From a virus (taxonomy: Duplodnaviria; Heunggongvirae; Uroviricota; Caudoviricetes), in IMG/VR virus record IMGVR_UViG_3300045988_060429: a DNA stretch of 24,279 bases; one strand, given 5' to 3'. The position numbers and the translations under genes are program-made. Positions 939-20,866 of the stretch are shown here, one piece after another (the first letter of the stretch is position 1; each line of letters opens with the position of its first letter). Below the pieces are notes generated by a model. That model had not been told where the DNA came from. It did no database searches and saw only the letters and a list, made by a program, of their open reading frames with translations.

Positions 939-1269
939 ATCAGCAGCAGAGCGCAAAGCCGCTCAGAGAGCCAGACAAGCTGCATCTGGTGTGCGTAAAC
1001 TGGAGATTGTGCTTGATGCTCAGGAAATTGAAATGCTGGAGCGTAACTGTGCCACGCGTCGCCCCGGGCGTGCGCCTTACGAATTTGGTGAGTATATAGC
1101 GTTACTGATCCGCCAGGATGATGCACGCGTGCGCGGGCGTATAAAATCGATCAGCAGAAAATGTTGCGGTAAGTGCGGCGAGAGAGTTCCAGTTAATTCA
1201 TGCCCGTGTAATGGTGACTCGCAATGCTGGGTGACTAAAGGCTGGCATGAAACGAAATTAATAGTGTGA
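931..1269 (+). CDS. small basic Cys-rich (zinc-ribbon-like) protein, possible regulator
   Basis: ATG at 931 with AAGG upstream (the track's 928 start is TTG). Basic N-terminus and a C-terminal cluster KCCGKCGERVPVNSCPCNGDSQC. It is the last gene before the terminator and late operon. Confidence 0.45.
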   Translation: MAKSAAERKAAQRARQAASGVRKLEIVLDAQEIEMLERNCATRRPGRAPYEFGEYIALLIRQDDARVRGRIKSISRKCCGKCGERVPVNSCPCNGDSQCWVTKGWHETKLIV

Positions 1270-1277
1270 CATGTCAC
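1266..1277. repeat. perfect 12-bp palindrome GTGACATGTCAC, copy 1
   Basis: Exact string read at 1266-1277. It overlaps the TGA stop of the Cys-rich gene and lies about 40 bp before the terminator hairpin. Confidence 0.9.
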
Positions 1278-1318
1278 GAGTAGATTATGCATGATGAATT
1301 TGATGGGGTTTGAATACT

Positions 1319-1344
1319 GCCGCCAACTATGGCGGCTTTATTTT
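1319..1344 (+). terminator. rho-independent terminator upstream of the terminase genes
   Basis: Stem GCCGCCA / TGGCGGC with loop ACTA, followed by TTTATTTT. Confidence 0.6.
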
Positions 1345-1351
1345 GCATGGT

Positions 1352-1388
1352 ACTATTACCACAACGGTAACTATTACCACGGTGGTTA
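1352..1388. promoter_or_regulatory. direct repeat ACTATTACCAC x2 containing the dyad TTACC-ACAAC-GGTAA
   Basis: ACTATTACCAC at 1352-1362 and 1370-1380. TTACCACAACGGTAA at 1356-1370, with an imperfect second copy TTACCACGGTGGTTA at 1374-1388, directly upstream of the terS start. Confidence 0.5.
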
Positions 1389-1984
1389 TGATGCCTGCTG
1401 AACCTAAAACCTATAAACGCAAATCAACGCAATTTAAGCCACTAACAGCAATGCAGGAGGCTTATTGCCAGTCATACATCAAAACGCCTGAAAACCAGAC
1501 TCAGGCAGCGATTAACGCAGGATTCTCCCCAAATACAGCGGCAGTTAAAGCCAGTGTCATGATGCGCGATGAACGCATTCAAAAACGGATTGCCGAGTTG
1601 ATGGAGGAGCGCAACAAACGAATGCGCGTCAGTGCTGATTACGTTCTCATGCGCCTGGTGGAGATCGACCAGATGGACGTGATCGACATCCTCAACGACG
1701 ATGGGAGCCTTAAGCCAATCCGCGAGTGGCCGAAAATCTGGCGCACTACGCTTAGTGGCTTTGATCTGTCATCGACCATCATGAACATGAACGAGGATTC
1801 GATAGAGACAATCCTCAAAAAAATTAAATGGCCTGACAAGGTGAAGAACCTCGAACTGATTGGTAAGCACGTCGACGTCAACGCATTCAAAGAACGTCTG
1901 GATGTTAATGTGAATGTGACAATTGCTGATCGCATAGCAGCAGCCAGGAAGCGACTCAAAGAACGTCAGGATGGCAATCAGTGA
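1388..1984 (+). CDS. terminase small subunit
   Basis: Segment KPLTAMQEAYCQSYIKTPENQTQAAINAGFSPNTAAV matches the helix-turn-helix region typical of TerS. Start is ATG 1388 or 1391 (GGTGG upstream). The track's 1310 start would run through the terminator and repeats. Confidence 0.75.
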   Translation: MMPAEPKTYKRKSTQFKPLTAMQEAYCQSYIKTPENQTQAAINAGFSPNTAAVKASVMMRDERIQKRIAELMEERNKRMRVSADYVLMRLVEIDQMDVIDILNDDGSLKPIREWPKIWRTTLSGFDLSSTIMNMNEDSIETILKKIKWPDKVKNLELIGKHVDVNAFKERLDVNVNVTIADRIAAARKRLKERQDGNQ

Positions 1985-3456
1985 CAGATACAGCGTTATC
2001 TCCTGAAGAGCAGTTAATCGAGGATATTGCAGGGTTCACTCACGATCCGCTTGGCTATGCCCTCTATGCGTTCCCGTGGGGGGAAGAGGGGACTGAACTG
2101 GCACATGCTACTGGTCCAAGAAGCTGGCAGAGGTGGATGCTTGACACTGTTGGCAAGCACCTCAGAAATCCAGATACACGCCATCAGCCACTGATGATTG
2201 CAGTTTCTTCAGGCCACGGAATCGGGAAAAGCGCAGGTATCTCCATGTTGCTGAACTGGGGAATGTCCACTTGCGAAGACTGCAAAGCAGTAGTCACTGC
2301 CAACACTGAAAATCAGTTGCGCACCAAAACTTGGCCAGAAGTGATTAAGTGGGCAAACCTGTCCATCACGAAAGACTGGTTCTCGACCCCGGCAACAGCG
2401 ATGTACAGCAATGATCCGGGGCACGATAAGCGCTGGCGCGCTGATGCTATACCGTGGTCTGAGCATAACACCGAGGCATTCGCCGGGCTGCACAACGAGC
2501 GTAAGCGGATTATCGTGGTATTCGACGAAGCGTCTAATATTGCTGATAAGGTTTGGGAGGTTGCCGAAGGTGCGCTTACTGACGAAGACACCGAAATCAT
2601 TTGGGTAGCGTTCGGAAACCCGACTCGTAACACCGGGCGATTCCGTGAATGTTTCCGCAAATACAAACACCGCTGGGTCACAAAGCAGATCGATAGCCGA
2701 ACCGTAGAGGGAACCAACAAAGAGCAGATCCAAAAATGGATTGAAGACCACGGTGAGGATAGCGACTTCGTTAAAATCCGTGTGCGCGGCATATTCCCTG
2801 ATGCATCTGAATTGCAGTTTATCCCTACCGGTCTTACTGACGAGGCAATGAAACGGGTGGTAACTGCTGCGCAGGTGGCACATGCTCCGGTGATAATCGG
2901 TGTTGACCCGGCATATTCAGGCGTTGATGACGCGGTGATATACCTGCGGCAGGGGCTACACAGTAAGGTGCTATGGACTGGTAACAAGACCACCGACGAT
3001 CTGATTATGGCGAAGCGTATCGCTGACTTTGAAGACCAGTATCAGGCTGACGCGGTGTTCATCGACTTCGGTTACGGAACCGGGCTGAAGTCAATCGGTG
3101 ACGGCTGGGGGCGCACATGGCAACTTGTTCCGTTCGGTGGCGCGTCTACTGACCCGCAGATGCTCAACAAGCGTGGGGAGATGTTCAACTCATGCAAGAC
3201 ATGGCTGAGGCTGGGCGGCATGCTGGATGACCAGGAAACAGCGGACGATCTGTCGGCGGCAGAGTACAAAGTTCGAGTGGACGGTAAAATCGTTATCGAA
3301 CCGAAGGAAGATATCAAGGAGCGGCTTGGGCGTTCTCCGGGGAAAGGCGATGCGTTATTGCTGACGTTTGCTTTCCCTGTGTCGAAACGCCTGCGAATTC
3401 CCGGGCAGCAGAACCAGCAAGGCAAGGCCATCACAGATTACGATCCCTATGCTTAA
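1981..3456 (+). CDS. terminase large subunit
   Basis: 491 aa, GTG start overlapping the terS stop (GTGA). Walker-A-like SSGHGIGKSAG near the N-terminus. Position after terS. Confidence 0.85.
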   Translation: MTDTALSPEEQLIEDIAGFTHDPLGYALYAFPWGEEGTELAHATGPRSWQRWMLDTVGKHLRNPDTRHQPLMIAVSSGHGIGKSAGISMLLNWGMSTCEDCKAVVTANTENQLRTKTWPEVIKWANLSITKDWFSTPATAMYSNDPGHDKRWRADAIPWSEHNTEAFAGLHNERKRIIVVFDEASNIADKVWEVAEGALTDEDTEIIWVAFGNPTRNTGRFRECFRKYKHRWVTKQIDSRTVEGTNKEQIQKWIEDHGEDSDFVKIRVRGIFPDASELQFIPTGLTDEAMKRVVTAAQVAHAPVIIGVDPAYSGVDDAVIYLRQGLHSKVLWTGNKTTDDLIMAKRIADFEDQYQADAVFIDFGYGTGLKSIGDGWGRTWQLVPFGGASTDPQMLNKRGEMFNSCKTWLRLGGMLDDQETADDLSAAEYKVRVDGKIVIEPKEDIKERLGRSPGKGDALLLTFAFPVSKRLRIPGQQNQQGKAITDYDPYA

Positions 3457-3495
3457 TCCGCTGGTGGGGATAATGTCGTTGATATCCTCTGGTGA

Positions 3496-3530
3496 GGATA
3501 AAACAAAGCCAGCTCATCGGCTGGCTGTTT
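3496..3530. terminator. hairpin terminator between convergent terL and the minus-strand gene
   Basis: Stem AGCCAGC / GCTGGCT (3507-3526). The minus-strand side has a T-rich run (TTGTTTTATCC); the plus-strand side has only GTTT. Confidence 0.55.
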
Positions 3531-3542
3531 GTGACATGTCAC
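3531..3542. repeat. perfect 12-bp palindrome GTGACATGTCAC, copy 2
   Basis: Exact string at 3531-3542, 4 bp from the terminator stem and 5 bp from the stop of the minus-strand gene. Confidence 0.9.
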
Positions 3543-3546
3543 GGTG

Positions 3547-3903
3547 TTATTGCTCGCTTAACTTCTGCTTCAGCAAGTAACCTTCGAGCATCCAGATTTT
3601 GTTTACAGCATTCTGCCGGGCAATCTTCCGACCAATTTCTGCATCAAAATTTTCCGGACTTGCACAGGCACTCTCTCCGGTGACGGTGAAGCCATTCTTC
3701 AGTACCAATACGCAGAAAGTCAGGAGGTCTGTAGATTTATGCGCTGTCCATGAATCGCCAACGCCCATATTGGCAGCACGAATGCCGTCATAAGCAGTAA
3801 AGAAATGCTCTTCAAGAATGATGCTTTCGATATATTGAGGCGTAACTCGCGGAGCGGTTTTGCCTTTCTCAACGATTTCTTTTTCGATTTGCTGGTCGTT
3901 CAT
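3547..3903 (-). CDS. conserved phage hypothetical protein (118 aa)
   Basis: ATG preceded by AAGGTGAG. Compact protein with a terminator downstream. It feels like a widespread small enterophage family but I cannot name it reliably. Confidence 0.55.
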   Translation of the reverse strand: MNDQQIEKEIVEKGKTAPRVTPQYIESIILEEHFFTAYDGIRAANMGVGDSWTAHKSTDLLTFCVLVLKNGFTVTGESACASPENFDAEIGRKIARQNAVNKIWMLEGYLLKQKLSEQ

Positions 3904-3913
3904 AATCTCACCT

Positions 3914-3938
3914 TAAAAAAATGCCCGGCGAACCGGGC
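3914..3938 (-). terminator. rho-independent terminator/attenuator just upstream of the 118-aa gene
   Basis: On the minus strand: stem GCCCGG / CCGGGC with loop TTCG, then ATTTTTTT. The SD and ATG of the 118-aa gene follow immediately. Confidence 0.5.
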
Positions 3939-4012
3939 GAACTGGAAGCAATGAGTTATGCCTTCCGTGGCTGTACTGGTTTACAGCATGAAGTCATCGC
4001 AATGGCGTCCTG

Positions 4013-4058
4013 CTGTAAAAAGGGCGGTGATAGTCCTTCAAGGGAAACCATCACCGCC
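4013..4058 (-). terminator. terminator-like hairpin downstream of the tRNA
   Basis: On the minus strand: 9-bp stem GGCGGTGAT / ATCACCGCC with an 18-nt loop, followed by CTTTTTAC. Confidence 0.4.
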
Positions 4059-4101
4059 AAGCCCCTGGAACTTCTGGCATCACGGTCCTTAGGCGTGATT
4101 C

Positions 4102-4178
4102 TGGCGTGGCATGCAGGATTCGAACCTGCGACCAACCGCTTAGAAGGCGGTTGCTCTGTCCAACTGAGCTAATGCCAC
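4102..4178 (-). tRNA. tRNA-Arg, anticodon UCU (argU-like)
   Basis: Reverse complement folds by hand into a cloverleaf: acceptor GTGGCAT / ATGCCAC, D-stem GCTC / GAGC, anticodon stem ACCGC / GCGGT with loop CTTCTAA (U33, anticodon TCT, A37), T-arm GCAGG-TTCGAAT-CCTGC, discriminator G and encoded CCA. Confidence 0.85.
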
Positions 4179-4500
4179 AACGCTGAGAGCACTTAGCCTG
4201 TTAAGGCGCCACACTTTGTCGCGGCTCCATAAATGCTCTCATCGTTGTACCCTCGTCTCTTCCGAGGAGTCACACCGAATCGCCGGGATGGTGAATCCCC
4301 GTGCGCGGAATAAAACCGCTCGACTTGCACATTCCGGCTACCTGGTTCGTTTGCCCGAGCAAGGGAGGGTGCCCCTTAAACGTATCCAGACCGCTATCGG
4401 CGCATGTGCCATACGCCGTACTGCTCAAAATAAAAGCTAACTCCACCTGTTCAATTTAACGACAAGCCAGTCAGGTTAGTAACCGGAATGAACTCTTTGG

Positions 4501-4515
4501 TTACCTGAAAGGTAA
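4501..4515. promoter_or_regulatory. dyad TTACC-TGAAA-GGTAA upstream of the portal operon
   Basis: Exact 15-mer, identical to the copy at 23269-23283. The shared block extends to TTACCTGAAAGGTAATA, and CATATGTGGTT follows in both places. Confidence 0.5.
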
Positions 4516-4605
4516 TAATTTGTGCGTTAAATGTCAACTACCTACGATAAATAAATCATATGTGGTTAAATTGGTAATAATTTAATTGCGTACGGAGTCA
4601 TTGAT

Positions 4606-4812
4606 ATGTGCATGGGTAGCTCACCATCAGTGCCTGCAACACCAGAAGTTCAGGCAGCACCACAGGAGCAGGATGCCGCCGTTGTTGATGCCCGCGACGA
4701 AGAAACTCGTCGCCGTCGCGCTGCTGCTGGTCGTAGTTCTACGCTGCTTACCGGTTCTCAGGGCGACACATCAACCGCTAATACCAGCGGTAAAACGCTG
4801 CTTGGTCAGTAA
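4606..4812 (+). CDS. hypothetical small protein (68 aa, low complexity)
   Basis: Its initiation region CGGAGTCATTGATATG is nearly identical to that of the portal gene (CGGAGTCATTGAAATG), which favours this frame over the overlapping 4586-4825 ORF. Confidence 0.4.
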   Translation: MCMGSSPSVPATPEVQAAPQEQDAAVVDARDEETRRRRAAAGRSSTLLTGSQGDTSTANTSGKTLLGQ

Positions 4813-4826
4813 CCGGAGTCATTGAA

Positions 4827-5138
4827 ATGGCGGAAACAACTAAAGAGCGATTGAACAAACAGTTCGCACAACTTGAAAGCGAGCGTCAGTCGTTCGAGCC
4901 GCACTGGCGCGAGTTGAGTGATTACATCAACCCGCGTGGTTCCCGCTTTCTGACTTCTGAGGTCAACCGTAACGATCGACGCAATACACGCATTATTGAT
5001 TCGACCGGGACTATGGCGGCGCGCACTCTCGCCAGCGGCATGATGTCAGGCATCACAAGCCCCGCGCGTCCGTGGTTTCGCCTGGCTACGCCAGATCCTG
5101 AAATGATGGATTATGGCCCTGTTAAGTTGTGGCTTTAG
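4827..5138 (+). CDS. portal/head-tail connector protein, N-terminal segment ending at an in-frame TAG
   Basis: Same frame as 5154-6506. Reading through TAG at 5136-5138 gives one protein of about 559 aa. Confidence 0.6.
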   Translation: MAETTKERLNKQFAQLESERQSFEPHWRELSDYINPRGSRFLTSEVNRNDRRNTRIIDSTGTMAARTLASGMMSGITSPARPWFRLATPDPEMMDYGPVKLWL

Positions 5139-5153
5139 GCGGGGCAGAACCGC

Positions 5154-6506
5154 ATGAACGATATGTTCAATAAGTCGAATCTCTACCAGTCTCTTCCGCA
5201 GTTATACGGAAGCCTCGGCACATACAGCACTGGTGCAATGGCGGTGCTGGAGGATGACGAGGACATCATTCGCACAATGCCATTCCCGATAGGCAGTTAC
5301 TACCTGGCTAACTCACCTCGTGGCAGTGTGGACACCTGTTTTCGCAAGTTCTCTATGACTGTTCGTCAGCTTGTTCAGGAGTTCGGGCTAAATAACGTCA
5401 GCGAATCCGTAAAAAGCATGTGGGAAAGCGGCACCTACGAGAAGTGGATTGAAGTGATGCATTCGGTTTACCCGAACATTGACCGCGATACATCGAAGCT
5501 GGATAGCAAGAACAAGCCATTCAAATCGGTTTATTACGAGGTTGGTGGCGATAACGACAAGTTGTTGCGTGAGTCCGGATTCGATGAGTTTCCAATTATG
5601 GCTCCGCGCTGGGAAGTTAACGGCGAAGATGTTTATGGATCATCATGCCCGGGTATGCTGGCGCTTGGATCTGTTAAGGCATTGCAGCTTCTTCAGAAGC
5701 GCAAGTCGCAGTTGATTGATAAAGCCACCAATCCGCCGATGGTTGCTCCGACTTCCCTCAAGAATCAGCGTGCCTCCCTTCTTCCTGGCGACATCACGTA
5801 TATCGATCAGATTACTGGTCAGGATGGTTTCAGGCCTGCTTATCTGGTTAACCCCAGTACAGCAGATTTGGTGGCAGACATTCAGGACACTCGTCAAATC
5901 ATTAACAGCGCCTACTTTGTCGATCTGTTCATGATGTTGCAGAACATCAATACCCGCTCGATGCCTGTTGAAGCGGTGATCGAAATGAAAGAAGAAAAAC
6001 TTCTGATGTTGGGGCCGGTTCTGGAGCGTCTGAACGACGAATGTCTTAATCCTCTCATTGACCGCTCTTTCTCGATGATGGTGCGTAAAAACATGCTGCC
6101 GCCACCGCCAGACGTGATGGAAGGTATGCCCCTGAAGGTCGAATACATTTCCGTCATGGCTCAGGCGCAGAAGTCTATCGGCCTGTCCAGTCTGGCGTCC
6201 ACGGTTAACTTCATTGGTCAACTTGTGCAAGCGAAACCAGAAGCTATCGACAAACTCAACGTTGATCAGGCGATCGATGCATTCGCTGATATGTCCGGAG
6301 TGTCTCCAACCGTCATTGTTCCGCAGGAACAGGTTGAGCAGGCTCGCCAGCAACGGGCACAGCAACAACAGCAGCAACAAATGATGGCGATGGGGATGGC
6401 GGCGGCACAGGCTGCCAAGACGCTAAGCGAAGCTAAAACTTCGGATCCGAGTGTTTTGTCAGCTATGGCGAATGCAGTTAGTGGTCAGGGTGGGCAATCA
6501 CAATGA
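5154..6506 (+). CDS. portal/head-tail connector protein, C-terminal segment
   Basis: The Q/A/M-rich C-terminal tail (QARQQRAQQQQQQQMMAMGMAAAQAA) strongly resembles the tail of T7 gp8 as I remember it. Lies between terminase and scaffold. Confidence 0.7.
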   Translation: MNDMFNKSNLYQSLPQLYGSLGTYSTGAMAVLEDDEDIIRTMPFPIGSYYLANSPRGSVDTCFRKFSMTVRQLVQEFGLNNVSESVKSMWESGTYEKWIEVMHSVYPNIDRDTSKLDSKNKPFKSVYYEVGGDNDKLLRESGFDEFPIMAPRWEVNGEDVYGSSCPGMLALGSVKALQLLQKRKSQLIDKATNPPMVAPTSLKNQRASLLPGDITYIDQITGQDGFRPAYLVNPSTADLVADIQDTRQIINSAYFVDLFMMLQNINTRSMPVEAVIEMKEEKLLMLGPVLERLNDECLNPLIDRSFSMMVRKNMLPPPPDVMEGMPLKVEYISVMAQAQKSIGLSSLASTVNFIGQLVQAKPEAIDKLNVDQAIDAFADMSGVSPTVIVPQEQVEQARQQRAQQQQQQQMMAMGMAAAQAAKTLSEAKTSDPSVLSAMANAVSGQGGQSQ

Positions 6507-6799
6507 CAGATTACGAAGACGATCAACTGAAAGAAGAAAACGCCCGTAAGCAACGTGACATGGCGCAGCGTGAAATTGATGACATTCGCTTTGTCATGAG
6601 CAGTGAACAGGGGCGTCGCGTTGTCTGGTCGGTGCTGGAGAAAGGCCGTGTGTTTTCCGCTATCTCACCGATGGACGCTATGGCAATGGCATTTAATGAG
6701 GGGCAACGCAATCTGGCGCTGGAACTGTTTCAGCGCGTTATGGCGCATTGCCCTGAACAGTATTTGAAGATGGCCAAAGAGGCCAGTGAACAGGAGTGA
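6503..6799 (+). CDS. hypothetical small head-module protein (98 aa)
   Basis: ATGA overlap with the portal stop, so probably translationally coupled. Confidence 0.55.
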   Translation: MTDYEDDQLKEENARKQRDMAQREIDDIRFVMSSEQGRRVVWSVLEKGRVFSAISPMDAMAMAFNEGQRNLALELFQRVMAHCPEQYLKMAKEASEQE

Positions 6800-6801
6800 T
6801 C

Positions 6802-7497
6802 ATGAATTTATTTGAGCGTTTGCTGTATCGCCGTCTTTGCAATGAGCAACCAGTCGATGGTGGAGCAGCTCCGGCTGCGTCAGAACCATCAGCGCCTGCA
6901 GGTGATAACCATGCTCCAGTTGGTGATCCATCACAACAGGAAGGTGATAAGCCACAACCTGTTGCTGATGGCGATAAACCTGCTGATGACAAAAAGCCTG
7001 AAAACGATAAGCAGGATGAAAAAAAGGACGGCAATAAACCAGAGGGTGCGCCTGAGAAGTACGAGTTTCAGGCTGCCGAAGGCGTAGAGCTGGATACAGA
7101 AGCGTTGAAGGAATTCGAGCCTGTGGCGCGAGAACTTAACCTGACCAACGAGCAAGCGCAAAAGCTGGTTGATGCTTATCCGAAGATTCTGGCAGGTGTG
7201 CAGCAGCGCCAGGCAGAAGCCTGGCAGAAAACAACCGAGCAGTGGGCTGCTGATGTAAAAGCTGACAAAGAAATCGGTGGCGACAAGTTGATTTCTAACC
7301 TTAGCGCCGCACAGCGTGCGCTTGACCAGTTCGGGACACCTGAACTCAAAGAATATCTGAACACCACCGGGCTGGGTAATCACCCTGATCTGGTCAAAAC
7401 GTTCGTGAAAATCGGAAAGGCGATGTCTGAAGATGGCATGGTCACCGGTGGTAATGAAGGCCAGCGTAGTGCGGCCGAAGTGCTCTATGGCAAATAA
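6802..7497 (+). CDS. scaffolding protein (putative)
   Basis: ATG at 6802 after AGGAG. Acidic, Pro/Ala-rich low-complexity N-terminal half and helical C-terminal half, immediately upstream of the capsid gene. Confidence 0.55.
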   Translation: MNLFERLLYRRLCNEQPVDGGAAPAASEPSAPAGDNHAPVGDPSQQEGDKPQPVADGDKPADDKKPENDKQDEKKDGNKPEGAPEKYEFQAAEGVELDTEALKEFEPVARELNLTNEQAQKLVDAYPKILAGVQQRQAEAWQKTTEQWAADVKADKEIGGDKLISNLSAAQRALDQFGTPELKEYLNTTGLGNHPDLVKTFVKIGKAMSEDGMVTGGNEGQRSAAEVLYGK

Positions 7498-7505
7498 GAG
7501 AGGAA

Positions 7506-8498
7506 ATGACAATGGCTGTTAAAGGCTTAACTGCGCTGACGCTGGCTGACTGGGGTAAGCGCGTCGATCCAAACGGGAAAGTCGATAAGATTATCGAGCT
7601 TCTCGGTCAAACTAACCCGATCCTTCAGGATATGCCTTTTGTCGAAGGGAACCTTCCTACCGGACACCGAACCACCATTCGTTCTGGTTTACCTTCAGCT
7701 ACCTGGCGTTTGCTGAACTATGGCGTACAGCCAAGCAAATCAACCACAGTGCAGGTAACCGATTCCGTGGGCATGCTGGAAACCTATGCTGAAGTCGATA
7801 AGTCACTGGCTGATCTGAACGGTAATACCGCCGAATTCCGCCTGTCTGAAGACCGCGCATTTATTGAAGCGATGAATCAGCAGATGGCGCAGACGTTGTT
7901 TTATGGTGATTCCAGCGTTAACCCTCAGCAGTTTATGGGACTGTCCTCCCGCTATTCCAGCCTGTCTGCGGGTAATGCTCAGAACATCATTGATGCTGGT
8001 GGCACGGGTACAGATAACACCTCAATCTGGTTAGTGGTGTGGGGCGAAAACACCGTGCATGGCATCTTCCCGAAAGGGCAGAAGGCTGGCATCCAGATGG
8101 AAGATAAAGGCCAGGTGACACTGGAAGATGCGAATGGCGGCAAGTACGAAGGCTACCGTACCCATTACAAATGGGACAACGGACTTGCTCTGCGTGACTG
8201 GCGTTATGTTGTTCGCATTGCAAACATCGATGTCAGCAATCTTTCAGAACCTTCCTCTGCCGCAAATATTGCGAAGTTGATGGTTAAAGCACTGCATCGC
8301 ATTCCAAATCGTGGCATGGGTCGCCCGGTGTTCTACATGAACCGCACTGTAGGCCAGGCTCTTGATCTGCAATCTCTGGAGAAAACATCTCTGGCGATCA
8401 GCGTAAAAGAGACAGAAGGCGAGTGGTGGACTTCATTCCGTGGTGTACCAATCCGTGAAACTGATGCGCTTCTGGAAACAGAAGCCCGCGTGGTGTAA
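7506..8498 (+). CDS. major capsid protein (putative)
   Basis: 330 aa, strong SD, position after the scaffold, followed by a stable stem-loop. Assigned by position and size, not by a recognised motif. Confidence 0.65.
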   Translation: MTMAVKGLTALTLADWGKRVDPNGKVDKIIELLGQTNPILQDMPFVEGNLPTGHRTTIRSGLPSATWRLLNYGVQPSKSTTVQVTDSVGMLETYAEVDKSLADLNGNTAEFRLSEDRAFIEAMNQQMAQTLFYGDSSVNPQQFMGLSSRYSSLSAGNAQNIIDAGGTGTDNTSIWLVVWGENTVHGIFPKGQKAGIQMEDKGQVTLEDANGGKYEGYRTHYKWDNGLALRDWRYVVRIANIDVSNLSEPSSAANIAKLMVKALHRIPNRGMGRPVFYMNRTVGQALDLQSLEKTSLAISVKETEGEWWTSFRGVPIRETDALLETEARVV

Positions 8499-8514
8499 CG
8501 CCTGTTATTAACCT

Positions 8515-8534
8515 GTGGGTCGTAACAGACCCAC
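8515..8534 (+). other. stem-loop after the capsid gene (mRNA-stabilising or processing hairpin)
   Basis: Stem GTGGGTC / GACCCAC with loop GTAACA. There is no U-tract, so it is not a canonical terminator. Confidence 0.4.
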
Positions 8535-8549
8535 TAATGGAGAAAGAAG

Positions 8550-8987
8550 ATGATCACCGACAAACTGTTGATGTTCTCCGAAGCTCAGGCGGTTACGAAT
8601 ACCGCGGCTTCTACTGACGTAATCGATCTCGGTCCAATTGACGGAAAACGTCGTGATATCGGCGTGGGTTACCCGCTTGAGTTTTGGGCGCTGGTTAACA
8701 CAGCCGCCGCGGCAAGCGGTGATGCAACTGTAAACATCCAGTTGCAGACGAGTGAGAATAACAGCTCATGGACCACTATTTATGATAGTGGCGCACTGGC
8801 AAAGACCGCCATGACAGCAGGTAAACGAGTTGTTTCTGCAAAGGTGCCTGCCGGTGTTCAGCGATATCTGCGTGTTAACTACTCCGTCGCAACTGGCCCA
8901 CTAACGGCTGGCGAATTCACTGCTGGTATCAGTCTTGATGTTGATGCCAATACGCCGTATCCGATCCGCTCAAAAGTAACTGGTTAA
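8550..8987 (+). CDS. hypothetical virion protein (145 aa)
   Basis: GGAG-type SD. Ser/Thr/Ala-rich sequence that looks beta-rich. Located in the head module. Confidence 0.5.
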   Translation: MITDKLLMFSEAQAVTNTAASTDVIDLGPIDGKRRDIGVGYPLEFWALVNTAAAASGDATVNIQLQTSENNSSWTTIYDSGALAKTAMTAGKRVVSAKVPAGVQRYLRVNYSVATGPLTAGEFTAGISLDVDANTPYPIRSKVTG

Positions 8988-8997
8988 GGTGATATCG

Positions 8998-9333: not shown

Positions 9334-9349
9334 GCCTCGCGAATCCGAC

Positions 9350-9371
9350 AAGGGGCTTCGGCCCCTTTATT
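9350..9371 (+). terminator. hairpin with UUCG tetraloop; possible partial terminator
   Basis: Stem AAGGGGC / GCCCCTT with loop TTCG, then TATT and the next gene's AGGAG. Confidence 0.4.
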
Positions 9372-9383
9372 GCAGGAGTGTAT

Positions 9384-13247: not shown

Positions 13248-13813
13248 TGTGTAACCCAGCCATCGCTTTGGTTGCCGTCACAGTGGCATCCACAGCCGCG
13301 TCAATGTACAGCCAGAGCAAGCAGGCAAAATACCAGTCAGCCATAGCTGATCGGAATGCTGAAATTGCTGAAGCTCAGGCACAGGATTCAATCAATCGTG
13401 GGAATATTGAAGCGGATCAGCGTCGTCGTGAAATGCGTCAACGCTCAGGCACTGCGGCGGCCACTATGGGGGCTACCGGTGCGGAATTAAGTAGCGGAAC
13501 AGCTCTTGACGTTTTTGCGGATAATGCTCAGTTCGGCACTCTTGATGCGTTAACGACAGTGAATAATGCTCAGCGTGAGGCATATGGGTATCAGGTTCAG
13601 GGAATGAATGCTCAGGCACAGGGGGCTGCTGCTCAGTCGGCTGCTAAATCATCGATGACCAGTACTTTGTTAACGGCACCACTAAAAGCATACGGTGCAT
13701 ATAAGTTGGGTGGCGGAAGTATCAATCCGATTAGTAAGCAAGGAAACACGCCAATGTTATCTAACTCAGGTTTTATGAATTCTGACTCCCGATTCAAAAT
13801 AGGAGGTTATTGA
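13247..13813 (+). CDS. internal core protein (gp14-like), 188 aa
   Basis: N-terminal hydrophobic helix (AIALVAVTVASTAAS) followed by an Ala/Gln-rich region, as in gp14-type ejection proteins. Confidence 0.5.
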   Translation: MCNPAIALVAVTVASTAASMYSQSKQAKYQSAIADRNAEIAEAQAQDSINRGNIEADQRRREMRQRSGTAAATMGATGAELSSGTALDVFADNAQFGTLDALTTVNNAQREAYGYQVQGMNAQAQGAAAQSAAKSSMTSTLLTAPLKAYGAYKLGGGSINPISKQGNTPMLSNSGFMNSDSRFKIGGY

Positions 13814-16560
13814 TGCCTGTTGTTCCTACTACATCCGGACGCCAGGTGCAAAGTCGTGGTGTGCAAACCGGTGGTTTTCAGACCTTCGATGTTCCTCAAG
13901 CAGGTCAGGTGCTGGCGAATGTCGCAGATCAGTATGCGGTGGCATATGGTGAAGCCAGGCAGAAAGCGAATGTTGCTATGGCCCAGGAGGCGTTACTGCA
14001 ATTTAACCAATTTGCAGATGACCAGATTAACAACCCTGAAAATGGGCTGATTTCTAAACAGGGTAAAAACGCTCTTGGTCAGAGTGACGCTGTTATGAAA
14101 AATATGCAGGAAAGGGCTCAGGCATTATTAGGCTCAATTCCTGAAAGTGAGGAAAGGAATAAATTATCCTTTCAACTCCAGCAGTCTATGCAGTCTTATT
14201 ACAATCAGGCACGTCGATATGAAGTTGGGCAGTTTCAGCAATTCCAAGATCAAACGTATTTGTCAGGAAATGCATTGGCTGTCACTCAGTCTGCGGGGCT
14301 ATATAGCGATAACCAAGCATTTGTCGATTTAGCCAAGCAGCGATTTGAATCTATTGATCAATACGCTGATGCGCATGGGCTTCCTGATGGGTGGCGTGTT
14401 CAGCAGAAAACTCAGCTCAAGGAACAAATGGGGCAGCAAGCATGGATAGGAAATATCGCTCAAAAATACAACGAGTTTCTTCAGGTTAATGGAGAGCCAG
14501 GGGATCTTGATGGTGTGAGTCGTGCAATATCACATGGTAATTCATTGGATGCTCGTGGTTTACGTAATAATAACCCTGGTAATATTGAAGCGAGCAAATC
14601 TAACCCGTGGGAAGGTCAGATCGGTAGCGATGGACGTTTTGCAACGTTTGCTACCCCTGAGCATGGAATCCGCGCGTTGGGTAAAAATATGTTGTCTTAC
14701 CAGCGTCAAGGCTATGACACCGTTAGCGAGATTGTTAATCGCTATGCTCCGGCTAGTGATGGTAATAATACTGATGCTTATATTAGGGCATTGTGTAGTG
14801 AGCTTGGTGTTGGGGAGAATGATCAGCTTGATATCTCTAACCCAAAGACACTAGCTGCTTTATGTGCTGGGATTATTAAACACGAAAATGGCAGTATGCC
14901 TTATAGCACCGAACAGCTTGAAACTGGTATCTCGGCAGCCCTTGGTCTAACTAACCTTGATTCACCTAAGCGTTATACGGGCAATGCGGCATTTGACGCT
15001 ATGAGCCCTCAAATGCAAATACAGGCATTGAGGCAGGCTAATGAGCTGAGAAATCAGTACCGCCAGCAGTATGCGGACCAGCTTAGCACCGTAGTTAAAG
15101 ATGCATATTCAGCCCTTGATGAAGGATTGAAACCTGAGAAGTTACCTTCTGAGGACGATTTTATCCGGGCCAATGGTCCGCGCATTGGCGCTATGAAGTG
15201 GAAGGATATGCAGGCGCAGATACAATATGGAGGTGTCATTGGTGCCGCTAAAGACCTCACTCCAGAAGGACGACAAGACATTCTTGAACGTTTACGTCCA
15301 CAGGATCCAAACGCTCCTGGATTTGCAGCTAACCAGCAACGCTGGGAGAAAATGCAGGCCAAATTTAAAGAGATGGATAGGGAGTGGGAGATTCAGCAGG
15401 GAAGAAACAGGTTCGTGTCTTCAATGCAAAATAACTTCCCGCTGGACCCGAACGACAAAAACAATCAGGCAGCGGTAGACCGTTATTTCGCGCAGGATAT
15501 CGCGCCTTCGTTTTCCATATCTGATCCGCAGAGCATCAATACACTGGTCACCGTCACAACTAAAAGCGGCATGATACCAACTCAGGTTAAAACAATGCTT
15601 AACAGTGGAGCAACATCAAGAGATCCTGCGATGGTTGTCCCGATGGCAAAATTCTACGGTCAGTTATTTGATAATAATCCGGCGGCAGCGGCAACACTTG
15701 ATAAAAGTACGATGGCATTTTACGGCAAGGTTTACGATTATTCCCGCGCTGGCGTGCCGGAGGATAAGGCTGTTGATATGGCTTACAGCCAGGTGTTCCA
15801 ACAGGATGACCGAATGAAACAGATGCTTTCCACTGCCATGCGAGACAAAAAATATGTCGCGGCGAGGGCAACTGCTGCACAAAATAACGCCAGCAGTCTG
15901 ACTTCCTTTGGTTCGTGGTCTCCGGATATTACCGATCCAGGAAAATCAAATGCGGCCTATCAGCGAGATTACCAGACAATTTACGATGCTAACTTTGTAC
16001 AGACAGGTGGCGATGCAGAACAGGCTGAGAAAATGACCAATGCCATGATCAGAACCACCTGGGGAGTTTCTACAGTTAATGGCAAAGCAGAGGTTATGAA
16101 GTATGCACCTGAGGCATTGTACGGAGTAAATAATGGTGCTGGTAACTGGATACAGGGGCAGTGGGAGCAGGAAAAACGCGAGCTTAAATCAAAATCCTTT
16201 GGCGGTCCTCGCAGTGATACGGACTTAATACTTGTTTCTGATGGCCTTACGGCAAGGGATAGGAGTTATGCTGTTATGGTTTTACAGCCTGACGCAAACG
16301 GAGCGATAGAACCGAGAAATTATATTGGAGAAAATGGTCTCCCTGTTCGTTTCAAGCCGGATCAGCTGACATCTCCAATGTACAGGCAAACCATTCAGTT
16401 CCAGCAACAGCGTGTTGATGAGGCTAGAGTGCGGAGAGAAGGCAATCCGCTGCCGCAGTTCAGCAATAAAGATGGATATACTCCTCCAGATCTGACCAAA
16501 CCATTCGGTTATGGTTCAGCCAATTACCTTCCGAGCAATATATACGCAGGGGGCAAATAA
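13810..16560 (+). CDS. internal virion protein with a putative peptidoglycan-hydrolase-like domain, 916 aa
   Basis: Block RGLRNNNPGNIEASKSNPWEGQIGSDGRFATFATPEHGIRALGKNM...IIKHENG lies in a visibly AT-richer segment (about 14.1-15.0 kb). I associate this NNPGN block with virion-associated wall hydrolases, with moderate certainty. Confidence 0.6.
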   Translation: MMPVVPTTSGRQVQSRGVQTGGFQTFDVPQAGQVLANVADQYAVAYGEARQKANVAMAQEALLQFNQFADDQINNPENGLISKQGKNALGQSDAVMKNMQERAQALLGSIPESEERNKLSFQLQQSMQSYYNQARRYEVGQFQQFQDQTYLSGNALAVTQSAGLYSDNQAFVDLAKQRFESIDQYADAHGLPDGWRVQQKTQLKEQMGQQAWIGNIAQKYNEFLQVNGEPGDLDGVSRAISHGNSLDARGLRNNNPGNIEASKSNPWEGQIGSDGRFATFATPEHGIRALGKNMLSYQRQGYDTVSEIVNRYAPASDGNNTDAYIRALCSELGVGENDQLDISNPKTLAALCAGIIKHENGSMPYSTEQLETGISAALGLTNLDSPKRYTGNAAFDAMSPQMQIQALRQANELRNQYRQQYADQLSTVVKDAYSALDEGLKPEKLPSEDDFIRANGPRIGAMKWKDMQAQIQYGGVIGAAKDLTPEGRQDILERLRPQDPNAPGFAANQQRWEKMQAKFKEMDREWEIQQGRNRFVSSMQNNFPLDPNDKNNQAAVDRYFAQDIAPSFSISDPQSINTLVTVTTKSGMIPTQVKTMLNSGATSRDPAMVVPMAKFYGQLFDNNPAAAATLDKSTMAFYGKVYDYSRAGVPEDKAVDMAYSQVFQQDDRMKQMLSTAMRDKKYVAARATAAQNNASSLTSFGSWSPDITDPGKSNAAYQRDYQTIYDANFVQTGGDAEQAEKMTNAMIRTTWGVSTVNGKAEVMKYAPEALYGVNNGAGNWIQGQWEQEKRELKSKSFGGPRSDTDLILVSDGLTARDRSYAVMVLQPDANGAIEPRNYIGENGLPVRFKPDQLTSPMYRQTIQFQQQRVDEARVRREGNPLPQFSNKDGYTPPDLTKPFGYGSANYLPSNIYAGGK

Positions 16561-19500
16561 TGCCGATATATGAACAGGATCCTAAAGAGTTGCTTGGCGA
16601 GGATATTCAGCAAATAGCAGCACCTGATGACAGTAATTTCTATATGGAAACACCTTCTTTGCTTTCTGCTGTGAACCCATTTACCAGTGATCAACGCGTT
16701 CAAAGGTCTAGACAAGCAGCATTTCGTATAGATAACACGCTGGGTAGCTTTATTGCCAGTGCTCCTTTCAGTCAGTTTGACAGGGTTGAAGGATATAACC
16801 CATTTGATAACGATGCAGCAGATATTAAAGGCTATGAAGATTTTGCAGATTCGTTTATCAACTCCGGTTCGCATGAAGAAACAATGGCAATTAAACATCG
16901 AATCGATAAGCAAAGAACAGATAGAGAATATCTATCTGAAATGGGTGGTGCTGGTACTATTTCAAGCTTAGCAATGGGAATGATAGACCCGGTTAATGTG
17001 GCTGCAATGTTCATCCCTGTAGGGGCGGTAGCGCGTGGAGGAAGTATTGCTGAGACGGCAGGGCGTTTTGCCCTGGCGAATGCTGCTGGTGGGGGAGTAT
17101 CAGAAGCCGCATTACAGGCCACTCAGGAAGCTCGCTCACCGATGGAGAGCGTATCGAACGTTGTTGTTGATGCTCTCGTTGGTGGGATCCTTGGTGCTGG
17201 TGCACAGCTACTTTCTGGACCTAGCGCACGCGAGGCAGTGGTTAACTCAGTAGGTAATCATTTGCGAGGTATGGATTCTCCTCAAAGCATTGGTGCAGCT
17301 CAGGTTTTCAATACCACACTCGATCAGGAACAGCTCGCTGGACTTGGACTTGTTAACAAAACGTTGAGTGTCACTCCTGCTGGCCGCTTGGCGCAATCAC
17401 CATCTCTTGTCTCCCGTCAGATTAACCAGCAGCTTGCCGAAAATAACTATTTCTTCGCCAAAAATGATGAGGGGTTGGCTACGTTTACGGCAGTCGAGAC
17501 TAAGATTAAGCAATACGACGCCATGCTTTATAAGCAGATGGAAGCCACTCGTGATGCTTACCAGCAGTACAGCAAATCTGTTAGCGCCCGCGGCGTGAAG
17601 AGGATGAACTTTATTGATTTCAATGAAGCTGTTGGCATGGCTATGCGCCGTGGTGATCAGAGTGATATTCCTGAGGTTTCACAAGCAGCCGCCAGAATCC
17701 GCCCCATTTTCGAGACCACAAAAGCCCGTATGCAGGAACTGGGGATCCTTCCTGAGGATATCGATGTCGTGACGGCGAAAAGTTATCTTCCCCGCATTTA
17801 TAAGTTCGATAAGATACTTTCCGACCGCACTGAATTCAGAGGGCGAATTGCCAACTGGATACAAGGGATTAGTGCCAAAAGTGCTGACAAAGCAGGTCAG
17901 CGAATTGAAAGGATAAATTCATTGCTAAAAACTGCAGAGGAATCGGCACCGCGCGCTGATGCTCTCGCTAGTGAAATCGCTGAAGCGGAGAAATGGTCTG
18001 GTAAAAAAATTCTACTCATGGAAGAACTGGATAAACGAAATAAGCTTATATCTCAGGAGACTGACACACAGGCGCGTCTTACAAGAATAGAAAAAGAGTT
18101 GGCCGAGACTTCATCAGAAAAACTTCAGGCAAGAATGATGAAAGAAAGCTCTGACCTTAAAACACGCCTTGATGATATAGCGCAGGCAAAGAGTGAGCTT
18201 CCTGTCTATCAGCGCCATATGGAGTTGCTGGATAATCCACGGAAATATCGTTCTGAGCTTCGCCGACTGCAAAAACGGGCAAATTCAACCACAAGGCTGA
18301 ATGCAAGCCGCGAACGAGCACTGAAGCAGATGGAGCCTCTATCCCGAGAGGAAGCAGAGGACGCTGCTGACGAGATCGTGAATAAAATAATAGGCGCACC
18401 TTCCGGGCTTGTACCAGCCGATATTATCCCAGAGAGACTCGTTGGTCGGGCTGGTTTCACTAAAAGCAGAACGCTGCTTATTCCTGATGAGCGTATAGAA
18501 GATTTTCTTGAATCAGATGTTAACTACATCATGGAAAGTTATCTCCGGCAGGTGGCACCAGAAATTGAGCTGACTGCGCAGTTTGGCCGTAAAGATATGG
18601 GGGAGCAAATCCGTCAGGTTAGTGAGGAATATACCCGGCTAATAAAAGAGGCTAAAACACCTAAACGACGTGCAGTTCTTGAGAAGCAACGGGAGGCTGA
18701 TATTAGGGATATTACGGCTATGCGTGATCGACTGCTTGGTACTTACGGCGCACCTCAAGATCCACGCGGTTTCTTTGTTCGTGCCGGGCGAGTTGCTAGG
18801 AATATTAACTTCCTCCGTTTGCTTGGTGGAATGACTGTCTCCGCTGCAACTGATCTGATGCGACCGATGATGCAGCATGGCCTGAGAAAATCTCTCGGAC
18901 CAATGGTAAGCATGCTTAAAAATATGGACTCAGTGAAAATTGCAACCAGGGATTTGCGAGAAATGGCTGTTGGGCTTGATTATGTCCTGTCTACGCGTAC
19001 AAAGGCTATAGCGGATCTTACTGACCCCTATAGCCGGAGAAGCGCCGCTGAGCGAGGTCTGAACTGGATGACGCAGAAATTCGGTAACTGGACGCTGATG
19101 AATCAGTGGAACAGCGCACTTAAATCATGGTCCGGGATGATAGTGCAGTCGAGGATACTTGACGCGGCTCGCCAAGTTTCTGCTGGTGGCACGCTCTCCA
19201 AAAGTGAAATGCGGAAGATGGCACAGGTCGGCATCAATGAAGATGTTCTGCGCCGAATCGGGGAGCAATTCGGGAAGCACGGAGAGGATATGGACGGGCT
19301 GTTAACCGGGCATAGTCATCTGTGGGATGACCGTTTCGCTAGAGAGATTTTCCAGTCTGCAGTGCTGAAAGATGTAGACTCAGTGATTGTAACGCCTGGC
19401 GTAGGTGATACACCGCTGTTTTTTAGTAAAGAAGGCTGGAAGATGATCACGCAGTTCAAAACGTTTATCTTCGCACAGCATAACAGGGTGCTGGTATCTG

Positions 19501-19949
19501 GTATCCAGCAGGGCGATGCTGCATTCTATCTTGGTGCGCTTGGCACGATTGCGCTTGGCTCAATGGTCTATATGATGAAACAGAAGTTAAGCGGTCGCGA
19601 TATCGACTACAGCTGGAATAACCTTGTGAAAGAGGGGATCGACCGGGGCGGAATGCTTGGCTGGCTCTCTGAGCCGCTGAATACCGTTGAGAACATAAGC
19701 GGCGGTAGGTTTGGTCTTGGCGCGATGTTTGGTGCGCCTCCGGTATCAAGGTTTCAGAGTCGTAATGCTATTGGTGCTTTACTTGGTCCTACCTTTGATC
19801 TTGGCGGTGATGCCGCGACGGTTGCGAATGGTGTGCTTAACGGAGAATTTGACAGCCAGCAAACCCACGCGGTCCGTAAAATGCTACCTTTTCAGAACCT
19901 GTGGGCGATATCACCGTTACTAAATAAAGTTGAAGAGCAGATGAAATAG
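16560..19949 (+). CDS. internal virion/DNA-ejection protein (gp16-like), 1129 aa
   Basis: Gly/Ala-rich hydrophobic segment (GGAGTISSLAMGMIDPVNVAAMFIPVGAVARGG...), long helical charged regions, and last position in the core-protein block. Confidence 0.6.
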   Translation: MPIYEQDPKELLGEDIQQIAAPDDSNFYMETPSLLSAVNPFTSDQRVQRSRQAAFRIDNTLGSFIASAPFSQFDRVEGYNPFDNDAADIKGYEDFADSFINSGSHEETMAIKHRIDKQRTDREYLSEMGGAGTISSLAMGMIDPVNVAAMFIPVGAVARGGSIAETAGRFALANAAGGGVSEAALQATQEARSPMESVSNVVVDALVGGILGAGAQLLSGPSAREAVVNSVGNHLRGMDSPQSIGAAQVFNTTLDQEQLAGLGLVNKTLSVTPAGRLAQSPSLVSRQINQQLAENNYFFAKNDEGLATFTAVETKIKQYDAMLYKQMEATRDAYQQYSKSVSARGVKRMNFIDFNEAVGMAMRRGDQSDIPEVSQAAARIRPIFETTKARMQELGILPEDIDVVTAKSYLPRIYKFDKILSDRTEFRGRIANWIQGISAKSADKAGQRIERINSLLKTAEESAPRADALASEIAEAEKWSGKKILLMEELDKRNKLISQETDTQARLTRIEKELAETSSEKLQARMMKESSDLKTRLDDIAQAKSELPVYQRHMELLDNPRKYRSELRRLQKRANSTTRLNASRERALKQMEPLSREEAEDAADEIVNKIIGAPSGLVPADIIPERLVGRAGFTKSRTLLIPDERIEDFLESDVNYIMESYLRQVAPEIELTAQFGRKDMGEQIRQVSEEYTRLIKEAKTPKRRAVLEKQREADIRDITAMRDRLLGTYGAPQDPRGFFVRAGRVARNINFLRLLGGMTVSAATDLMRPMMQHGLRKSLGPMVSMLKNMDSVKIATRDLREMAVGLDYVLSTRTKAIADLTDPYSRRSAAERGLNWMTQKFGNWTLMNQWNSALKSWSGMIVQSRILDAARQVSAGGTLSKSEMRKMAQVGINEDVLRRIGEQFGKHGEDMDGLLTGHSHLWDDRFAREIFQSAVLKDVDSVIVTPGVGDTPLFFSKEGWKMITQFKTFIFAQHNRVLVSGIQQGDAAFYLGALGTIALGSMVYMMKQKLSGRDIDYSWNNLVKEGIDRGGMLGWLSEPLNTVENISGGRFGLGAMFGAPPVSRFQSRNAIGALLGPTFDLGGDAATVANGVLNGEFDSQQTHAVRKMLPFQNLWAISPLLNKVEEQMK

Positions 19950-20390
19950 CTATTCACAATTAGTGATGGCGTATGTATCAAATATATTGCCATCACTAAA
20001 TACATACCTATACTCAATCTCTCCGCCAAGGTGAATAAATGCTTTCATTTGCCTGTTGGAGCAAATGCTCGATTTTGAATAATTTCGCATTACACTCTTT
20101 AATTTATTTTCTAAGGTTACATCACCATTATAAACTTTTGATAAATAGCTGTTGTTGTAATTAAGATGCGCTACAACTAAAAGTTTGTTTAGTATTGCAT
20201 TTATTGAAACAATAGACATATTATCATTCAATTTTATGGGAAGTGACTTTCCTGCTTCTGATGCGATTTTGTTTGCATGTGCACACATATCCTCATTTAT
20301 TAAATTCTTAAAACATATGTCGTTTGCAAACGAAAAAATTGGTAGGATAAACAAAACGGTAGCTGTAATAGCGTGCATCGGCTTAATCAT
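19950..20390 (-). CDS. secreted/periplasmic protein of unknown function, AT-rich (146 aa)
   Basis: N-terminal signal-peptide-like sequence MIKPMHAITATVLFILPIFSFA with a probable cleavage after SFA. The gene is visibly lower in GC than its neighbours. Confidence 0.5.
   Translation of the reverse strand: MIKPMHAITATVLFILPIFSFANDICFKNLINEDMCAHANKIASEAGKSLPIKLNDNMSIVSINAILNKLLVVAHLNYNNSYLSKVYNGDVTLENKLKSVMRNYSKSSICSNRQMKAFIHLGGEIEYRYVFSDGNIFDTYAITNCE
19961..20007. repeat. interleaved inverted repeats at the end of the late operon
   Basis: TAGTGATGGC (19961-19970) pairs with GCCATCACTA (19989-19998). GTATGTAT (19971-19978) pairs with ATACATAC (20000-20007). Confidence 0.6.
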
Positions 20391-20402
20391 TAGGTGACCT
20401 TT

Positions 20403-20852
20403 ATGTTCAAGAAGATGATCAACAGATTAATCGGTGGTAAGGAGGTTAGCAATAAAATTCAACCTCTTATCTTTAAGGATAACTTTTCAGCTTTTGAGTA
20501 TGCGTGTAAGTATCTTGACACAAGCCTTTCAGCCAATAAACCAATGCCAGCCATCATCATACCTGGTCCCAGTGGGGAACAGCCAGTTTTGCTAGATTCT
20601 GGAAGACAAAGGGCAATGCTGAAGGTGTGCTCAGCTGATGGTGGATTTTTTGTTATTGCCGATTCATCTTACAGCAAAGGACCAAAGCTGAGGATTGGTG
20701 ATCTTGTTGCTTGGTTGCCTGTGAGTTATGCCGAAGAATTAACGGATAAAATAGAAGATCCTCGCTCCGCTATGGTTGGCTTTATATTGGGAACCATTCA
20801 TCCTGAACTAACATCTACTGGCTGGAAGGGTAAAGAAAGATTTCGCAAGTAG
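20403..20852 (+). CDS. hypothetical protein (about 149 aa)
   Basis: ATG at 20403, 6 nt after AGGTG (the track's 20394 start is GTG). Divergent from the secreted-protein gene, with start codons 12 bp apart. Ends 1 bp before palindrome copy 3. Confidence 0.5.
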   Translation: MFKKMINRLIGGKEVSNKIQPLIFKDNFSAFEYACKYLDTSLSANKPMPAIIIPGPSGEQPVLLDSGRQRAMLKVCSADGGFFVIADSSYSKGPKLRIGDLVAWLPVSYAEELTDKIEDPRSAMVGFILGTIHPELTSTGWKGKERFRK

Positions 20853-20853
20853 C

Positions 20854-20865
20854 GTGACATGTCAC
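20854..20865. repeat. perfect 12-bp palindrome GTGACATGTCAC, copy 3
   Basis: Exact string at 20854-20865, abutting the terminator stem at 20867. Confidence 0.9.
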
Positions 20866-20866
20866 A

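Follow-up and report, generated by a model that had tools for sequence, protein, structure and literature searches.

Terminator-linked copies of a 12-bp matS-like palindrome as candidate operators of a ribbon-helix-helix/zinc-ribbon regulator in an epsilon15/phiV10-like phage

The described systems closest to the DNA element analyzed here are MatP with its matS sites, the Q antitermination system of phage lambda, the ribbon-helix-helix (RHH) repressors, and the stoperators of phages L5 and Bxb1. RHH proteins are usually repressors, and the operators of Arc, Mnt, CopG, MetJ, antitoxins, and ParG/omega overlap promoters upstream of the regulated gene. Stoperators are asymmetric, orientation-dependent sites, ~24 to 30 in number, that are bound by the immunity repressor. 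MatP occurs in a host range of Enterobacterales, Vibrio, and Aeromonas. The matS consensus, GTGACRNYGTCAC, is 13 bp long (PMC6907758 Table 2). Here, we analyzed the 24,279-nucleotide viral DNA of IMG/VR record IMGVR_UViG_3300045988_060429 (the window, by which we mean the whole of this stretch), which is from an epsilon15/phiV10-like (Uetakevirus) temperate podophage and contains three copies of the 12-bp palindrome GTGACATGTCAC. The finding is real and non-random, and it is best explained by an RHH regulator and a set of operators with matS-like half-sites and an unusual terminator-coupled placement, with the regulator family occurring widely among temperate phages that infect Enterobacterales and Vibrionaceae. 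In its full form, our explanation is that operators of an RHH/zinc-ribbon regulator serve as transcription-unit boundary elements, which we hold with roughly even confidence. The likely binder and the resemblance to matS are additions to an earlier sequence-only reading of this DNA, from which the analysis started.

Exact copies of GTGACATGTCAC lie at 1266-1277, 3531-3542, and 20854-20865 (copies 1, 2, and 3), exactly where the sequence-only reading had placed them. Its claim that they do not occur by chance is borne out by dinucleotide-preserving shuffles of the window, 0 of 100 of which contained an exact copy. With up to two mismatches allowed, the window yielded four matches against a shuffle mean of 1.0. 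The fourth, GTGACATGGCGC at 6555-6566 (two mismatches), is inside an open reading frame (ORF) at 6503-6799, and the equivalent position in phiV10 and EC.W1-9 reads GTGACATGGCAC (one mismatch); this near-match may be a chance occurrence or a weak internal site.

Each copy adjoins a stop codon and has a terminator hairpin close by, in agreement with the reported placement at gene ends near terminators. Copy 1, which we term class A, overlaps the TGA stop (1267-1269) of a 112-aa regulator gene on the plus strand (931-1269). The other two copies are class B, or terminator-abutting, sites at convergent gene junctions, as had also been noted. Copy 2 lies 4 nt past the stop of the minus-strand gene at 3547-3903 and 4 nt ahead of a minus-strand hairpin, and copy 3 lies 1 nt past the stop of the last late-operon gene (20394-20852) and abuts a terminator hairpin. 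Along the direction of its gene, the palindrome is upstream of the hairpin at every copy, with gaps of 41, 4, and 0 nt for copies 1, 2, and 3. The intrinsic terminator past copy 1 ends the early-right operon on the plus strand (1319-1344; hairpin 1319-1336 and a T-tract), and its equivalent is annotated in the epsilon15 record. That of copy 2 serves the minus-strand unit (3499-3526; hairpin 3526-3507, T-tract 3506-3499) and is a weak one when read in the plus direction, behind terL. The plus-strand terminator of copy 3 (20866-20891; hairpin 20866-20883 and a T-tract) is at the convergent junction with a minus-strand gene at 20889-21122. The 12-mer always falls in the transcribed 3' untranslated region (UTR). 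A conserved extended motif around it, which the sequence-only reading had proposed to look for, did not emerge; the flanks of the three window copies are unalignable, and the copies share the 12-mer alone plus a weak preference for T or C before it and G or A after it.

The 12-mer is conserved at equivalent junctions of related phages. In epsilon15, with ~77% nucleotide identity to the window, it is exact at the same three junctions (copy 1 at 39612 of L003, copy 2 at 2142, and copy 3 at 19517), while the hairpins and flanks diverge from those of the window. Tyrion likewise has three exact copies (copy 1 split over the record ends, copy 2 at 2702 of L004, and copy 3 at 20377), and phiV10 has exact copies 2 and 3 (2262 of L002 and 19493) with a copy 1, again split over the record ends, that matches at 11 of 12 positions (GTGACATGTTAC). 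The epsilon15 and phiV10 records annotate terminators at these places and not the palindrome. The possibility of a host repeat, raised earlier, was checked on the ~10 kb of Escherichia coli host flank sampled, and no copy of the 12-mer was found there. Approximately half of the 14-mer matches across IMG/VR were in relatives of this phage or beside homologues of the regulator. Several unrelated GC-rich viral contigs (L024, L043, L072, L110, L170, L242, and L273) contain dense (G)TGACGC/GTCACG-type repeats, including GTGAC..GTCAC palindromes, that resemble the iterons of some other system, and these arrays inflate the raw match counts of the collection scans. The GTGACATGTCAC string was not found in the searchable literature, and an open literature search likewise returned no description of this site.

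The gene that ends in copy 1 encodes the candidate palindrome binder. It belongs to the phiV10 p55/epsilon15 gp49/N15 gp46 family (PHROG 536, labeled "transcriptional regulator"), whose 726 clusters (at 90% identity) occur in podo-, sipho-, and myophages infecting Enterobacterales, Vibrio, and Aeromonas. The start of the ORF is ambiguous, being TTG 928 in the ORF list and ATG 931 in the family alignment. Searches of the protein against Pfam and NCBIfam gave no family match, Q families included. AlphaFold, given a 58-sequence alignment of diverse family members, returned a model with a pLDDT of 92.9 that contains a basic helix (residues 5-19), an extended segment (~21-28), helices at 30-42 and 52-74, a Cys-rich ribbon (78-99), and a short helix (100-107). 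The modeled fold is a basic helix and an RHH domain followed by a C-terminal 4-Cys zinc ribbon. In the standard binding mode, an RHH dimer occupies a 12-bp dyad with its β-sheet over the dyad center, which fits the center being the part of the site that co-varies with the β-strand of the protein, as described below.

Homologues were retrieved by a protein pattern and not by the motif, with one genome for each species. The resulting 39 loci range from Citrobacter to Xenorhabdus and Yersinia, with identities of 37-80%. The exact 12-mer is at or just past the stop in 25 of these loci, starting either 1 nt before the matched coding end or 5 or 7 nt after it. Because the position of the 12-mer shifts relative to the stop codon, coding constraint does not explain its conservation. 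One-mismatch variants occur in 6 more of the 39 loci (e.g., GTGACCTGTCAC in Pantoea), and five Yersinia-type homologues of ~40% identity bear a symmetric variant, GTGACGCGTCAC. N15 gp46, also a homologue, has its stop overlapped by GTGACTGGTCAC, a TG/CA center variant of its own. This sequence or its reverse complement occurs three times in N15 (L279; 28550, 33237, and 39269), with one copy each at the gp46 stop, in the interval between genes 33 and 32, and inside repA. The site between genes 33 and 32 is upstream of an annotated terminator, and none of the N15 sites is annotated in the record.

The center of the site and the β-strand of the protein change together. The CGCG variant, when scanned for in IMG/VR, occurred chiefly at Yersinia-type homologues, at their 3' ends, and also beside terminators on the same contigs. 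Two contigs pair CGCG at the homologue 3' end with CGCG beside a terminator (L183 with L231, and L229 with L236), and L168 has both kinds of site. In a within-genome test, the seeding site of each locus was removed and further GTGACNNGTCAC sites were counted. Loci seeded with CATG contained 15 additional sites with an AT center and 0 with a GC center, loci seeded with CGCG contained 1 and 12, respectively, and the chance expectation was ~1 additional site of any type per set. The β-strand accompanying CATG sites follows x-K-h-E-h-x-L (e.g., RKLELVL), and that accompanying CGCG sites is mostly x-E-h-R-h-[RK]-L (NEIRARL, TELRIKL, and REIRLKV). Site and DNA-reading residues thus appear to co-vary across homologues, over a few clades that represent few independent events. 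Judged from these sequence comparisons, the 12-mer is probably the operator of the RHH regulator encoded beside copy 1. Conservation, linkage to the RHH gene, and co-variation with its product also argue for a protein-binding site tied to transcript ends, which the sequence-only reading had suggested.

The association with terminators extends beyond the window. Among 148 collected sites, 62 have a terminator within 60 nt, compared with 4.9% of random positions. After clustering by flanks into 130 clusters, the palindrome was 0-5 nt upstream of a hairpin in 11, and a terminator pointing toward the palindrome within 0-5 nt was seen in a single cluster only, that of the bidirectional copy-2 hairpin. 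Class-B sites typically fall at convergent ORF junctions. By our own arithmetic, the center of the palindrome is ~33-36 bp from the end of the U-tract. Spacing at class-A sites is variable, from 13 to 41 nt or more. In relatives (L126 3348-3672; also L127, L133, L007, and L008), the interval between the class-A palindrome and the copy-1 terminator holds a LexA-box promoter (TACTGT-N8-ACAGTA) and an 85-aa ORF of PHROG 2100, possibly an SOS-induced antirepressor. The conserved 41-nt spacer of the window (1278-1318), which includes a conserved 8-codon mini-ORF, looks by comparison like a deletion scar of this SOS-controlled gene, so the copy-1 spacing would be unconstrained. A role of the mini-ORF as a leader peptide was rejected, since the deletion scar explains it better. 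A P2-like Yersinia phage has a LexA-like box ~200 nt 3' of its palindrome.

Transcription units of this phage begin with a different element. The window contains five perfect TTACC-N5-GGTAA dyads and one with a single mismatch (1356-1370, 1374-1388, 4501-4515, 21841-21855, 22888-22902, and 23269-23283) against 0.28 expected. A near-identical prophage resides at the 3' end of E. coli guaA, and in this full prophage (L282), the dyads are at OL/OR and ahead of most transcription units. The epsilon15 record annotates equivalent dyads as repressor sites, and they look like multi-operator repression that covers "late" units too. Ahead of terS, on the plus strand at 1348-1388 and outside the palindrome system, the next unit starts with a candidate extended -10, TGgTACTAT (1348-1356), that overlaps the first dyad and reads TGtTACTAT in epsilon15 and TGaTACTAT in L131. 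From its sequence, this element may serve the terS unit as a promoter. The dyads and the candidate -10 at unit starts imply that units begin with a promoter and repressor operator; at the other end, three units close with the 12-mer followed by a terminator. The palindrome is distinct from the TTACC dyad, as the sequence-only reading had maintained, and an immunity operator role for the 12-mer was rejected because it is not in OL/OR of the full prophage, where the dyads sit.

These findings suggest a model in which the regulator, whose gene is the last of the early-right operon and would be expressed once repression is lifted, would bind each dyad as an RHH dimer, with its two-stranded β-sheet reading the central CATG and the basic N-terminal helices touching the outer GTGA/TCAC. 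It would then occupy the 3' ends of units, namely the early/late boundary at copy 1 and the two convergent junctions at copies 2 and 3, where bound protein and an adjacent one-directional terminator could close the junction to RNA polymerase both ways. The hairpin and T-tract would halt polymerases coming from the palindrome-bearing gene, and the protein roadblock would stop, or help to stop, those from the convergent side, where the hairpin has no T-tract. In this way, terL and the late operon would be protected from antisense read-through, and the terS promoter from read-through by early transcripts. That the 12-mer acts in this way, as a boundary or termination-reinforcing element rather than via antitermination or bridging, is a tentative proposal that we rate at somewhat below an even chance.

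Several observations weigh against this explanation. The 3'-end palindrome is missing in some homologues (L030, L037, and L105). The Vibrio siphophage K308, which has a homologue, carries four GTGAC-N2-3-GTCAC sites (one ~19 nt ahead of the terS start codon), and these sites immediately precede ribosome-binding sites, that of terS among them, and have no terminators. In the close prophage L282, the identical copy-3 terminator (37801-37840) follows another last gene and the 12-mer is missing, which indicates that the site is dispensable there. The link between protein and site consists of adjacency and of between-clade covariation that represents few independent events. As the abutting hairpins form about three sequence families, the orientation rule may go back to no more than a few origins. 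Finally, a roadblock upstream of a strong terminator would be redundant for polymerases moving in the same direction, and a pure roadblock or boundary model would not account for the constant order of palindrome and then hairpin. This order would follow if the bound protein made contact with a polymerase pausing ~33-36 bp away, at the U-tract, regardless of whether termination was reinforced or relieved.

Relief of termination by such a contact is the alternative that survives best. In a Q-like mechanism, the bound regulator would engage polymerase paused at the terminator and allow read-through, with early transcripts entering terS and terL at copy 1 and late ones passing copy 3 toward the tail-fiber and lysis genes. 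The layout of regulator gene, site, strong terminator, and terS matches that of lambda Q, qut/PR', and tR', and the terminators are strong, the kind that gets regulated. The palindrome is always upstream of the hairpin at short range, and its distance from the U-tract end is near the lambda QBE-to-pause distance, which is close to 33-36 bp. The extra zinc ribbon is weakly TraR/DksA-like (E 0.02-0.04), and one N15 site lies ahead of a terminator within the gene 33-32 operon. However, read-through at copies 2 and 3 and at most class-B sites, which are at convergent junctions, would yield antisense RNA only, and, directly past the copy-1 terminator, the terS unit seems to be supplied with a candidate extended -10 and repressor operator of its own. 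The variable class-A spacing and the scar-like spacer of the window also count against it, and neither the lack of similarity to the Q families of Pfam nor the usual role of RHH proteins as repressors favors antitermination. Moreover, late regulators are already present in N15, which has a Q (gp40), and in the P2-like Yersinia phage, which has an annotated regulator in the Ogr position (gp54). We regard Q-like antitermination as unlikely, although a contact with polymerase keeps substantial weight.

MatP-like bridging and the readings without the regulator are less likely. In the former, dimers bound at the three sites would bridge them via the C-terminal domain and loop the DNA by transcription unit, or would mimic or compete with MatP at matS. 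The half-sites are identical to those of matS, phages carrying the family infect the MatP host range, and copies 1 and 2 enclose terS-terL while copies 2 and 3 enclose the structural genes. Yet the similarity of the proteins is not significant, the site is 12 rather than 13 bp with no 13-bp matS in the window, and the center bases co-vary with the phage protein, which points to phage-specific recognition. Bridging would also give no reason for sites to be 0-4 nt from terminators and a few nt from stops, and we consider it improbable.

Least probable of all is that a host factor or no protein is involved, the 12-mer being a module-boundary recombination joint or stretch of microhomology that travels with a mobile terminator cassette, a 3'-UTR RNA element, or a host regulator site with an incidental RHH link; mosaic joints at the 12-mer (L282 without it, the TL-2011b arc/ant module, and the varied genes upstream of copy 3), the RecT/RecE-type recombinases encoded by the phage, and the constant transcription of the 12-mer into the 3' UTR would fit, but a passive joint would not stay exact over ~77%-identical genomes with diverged flanks or switch to another perfect palindrome in step with the neighboring DNA-binding protein, the RNA fold, at a marginal -1.2 kcal/mol, is no competitor for the terminator hairpin, the spacing of the copies (TGTGA-N4-TCAC) does not match the CRP consensus (TGTGA-N6-TCACA), and the ~10 kb host flank has no further copy.

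The mosaicism itself bears on the earlier suggestion of a module boundary, one part of which stands. The gene upstream of copy 3 differs among the window, phiV10, epsilon15, and Tyrion. Copy 3 is missing from EC.W1-9 and from the guaA prophage, whose full 40 kb plus ~10 kb of host flank contain copies 1 and 2 only. In L282, the copy-3 terminator follows another gene without the 12-mer, and in TL-2011b (L005 32282-32320), 12-mer and terminator together follow an inserted arc/ant module, both in keeping with a boundary between modules; exact conservation disfavors a passive recombination joint. The copy-3 terminator AGGCCGCTTTCGCGGCCTTGTT and its right flank are common to phages with different upstream genes, with the mosaic joint exactly at the palindrome-hairpin border.

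Two further roles for the 12-mer were rejected. An RNA hairpin or riboswitch-like function is at odds with its marginal fold, which is no better than that of shuffles, and with the absence of pairing to the terminator hairpins. At copy 1, GTGACA could be a -35 element with CATGAT 18 nt away, but this promoter is a weak match (9/12) whose -10 is, by our reading of the aligned flanks of relatives, unconserved, and copies 2 and 3 lack a -10 to pair with.

From left to right, the window runs from the last part of the early-right operon through terS and terL, a Gp49-family gene in reverse orientation, a tRNA-Arg, and the structural operon to a reverse accessory block that includes a Bro-N domain protein. 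The start of terS is ambiguous; the phiV10 record uses a TTG (equivalent to window 1310) upstream of the terminator, and the epsilon15, EC.W1-9, and TL-2011b records use the ATG equivalent to window 1391. The minus-strand gene whose 3' end bears copy 2 (3547-3903) is of the Phage_gp49_66 family (Pfam PF13876, E = 1.7e-34). The tRNA-Arg (anticodon TCT; 4102-4178, minus strand) is between this gene and the portal-side genes, with two minus-strand terminator-like hairpins directly 3' of it (4058-4023 and 3938-3923).

Serotype-converting prophages of E. coli O157 and Salmonella are among the epsilon15/phiV10-like temperate phages, for which no late-gene or boundary regulator has been identified so far. 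The present analysis ties an unannotated conserved palindrome to an uncharacterized regulator family. It offers a hypothesis for how transcription units are sealed or opened at convergent junctions in compact genomes, and it provides an annotation marker, GTGAC-NN-GTCAC at the 3' end of a regulator gene. More speculatively, and in our view doubtful as a whole, the PHROG 536 family and its matS-like palindromes may constitute a widespread, previously unrecognized phage system, in which a DNA-tethered factor with a specificity reprogrammable through the β-strand acts on RNA polymerase at intrinsic terminators, switching them off or making them bidirectional insulators. The near-identity of the half-sites to matS prompts the question of whether the system has evolutionary or functional cross-talk with chromosome organization.

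Like matS, the phage sites have GTGAC/GTCAC half-sites, so that the phage site is matS minus its central base, and they are few, dispersed over a DNA domain, and candidates for an RHH binder with a basic helix before the strand. They differ in having 12 bp with a 2-bp center, in lying at gene 3' ends by terminators, and in a center that varies between phages along with the protein, which has a zinc ribbon instead of the four-helix bundle and coiled coil of MatP. Profile comparison of the regulator with MatP by hhalign was not significant (E 0.064), the window contains no 13-bp matS at up to one mismatch, and the prophage is located at guaA, not in the chromosomal Ter region; the matS resemblance is a lead and not membership. 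As with lambda Q, qut (QBE), and tR', the regulator gene is the last of the early-right operon, with the site right after its stop and then a strong terminator, terS, and the late genes. Unlike that system, this one has an RHH fold with no Q-family homology, no convincing conserved promoter between site and terminator, extra sites at convergent junctions, and a promoter with a repressor operator downstream of the terminator. TraR and YbiI, of the TraR/DksA C4 zinc finger type, gave a weak profile match to the long helix and CxxCG..(L/I)P zinc ribbon (E 0.02-0.04) that does not reach significance, and their cysteines are spaced differently. The helix that TraR inserts into the secondary channel corresponds here to helix B of the RHH dimer, which makes a shared binding mode unlikely, and homology was set aside as borderline in E value and structurally implausible for a secondary-channel binder. 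In contrast to the operators of RHH repressors, the phage site is at the regulator's own 3' end and at other gene ends abutting terminators, and the protein has an extra conserved zinc ribbon. Finally, as with the L5/Bxb1 stoperators, which are thought to stop elongating polymerase, the sites are short, candidate protein-bound, and dispersed intergenically in a temperate phage; they differ from stoperators in being palindromic, in numbering about three per genome, and in being absent from the immunity region, where the repressor uses the TTACC dyad.

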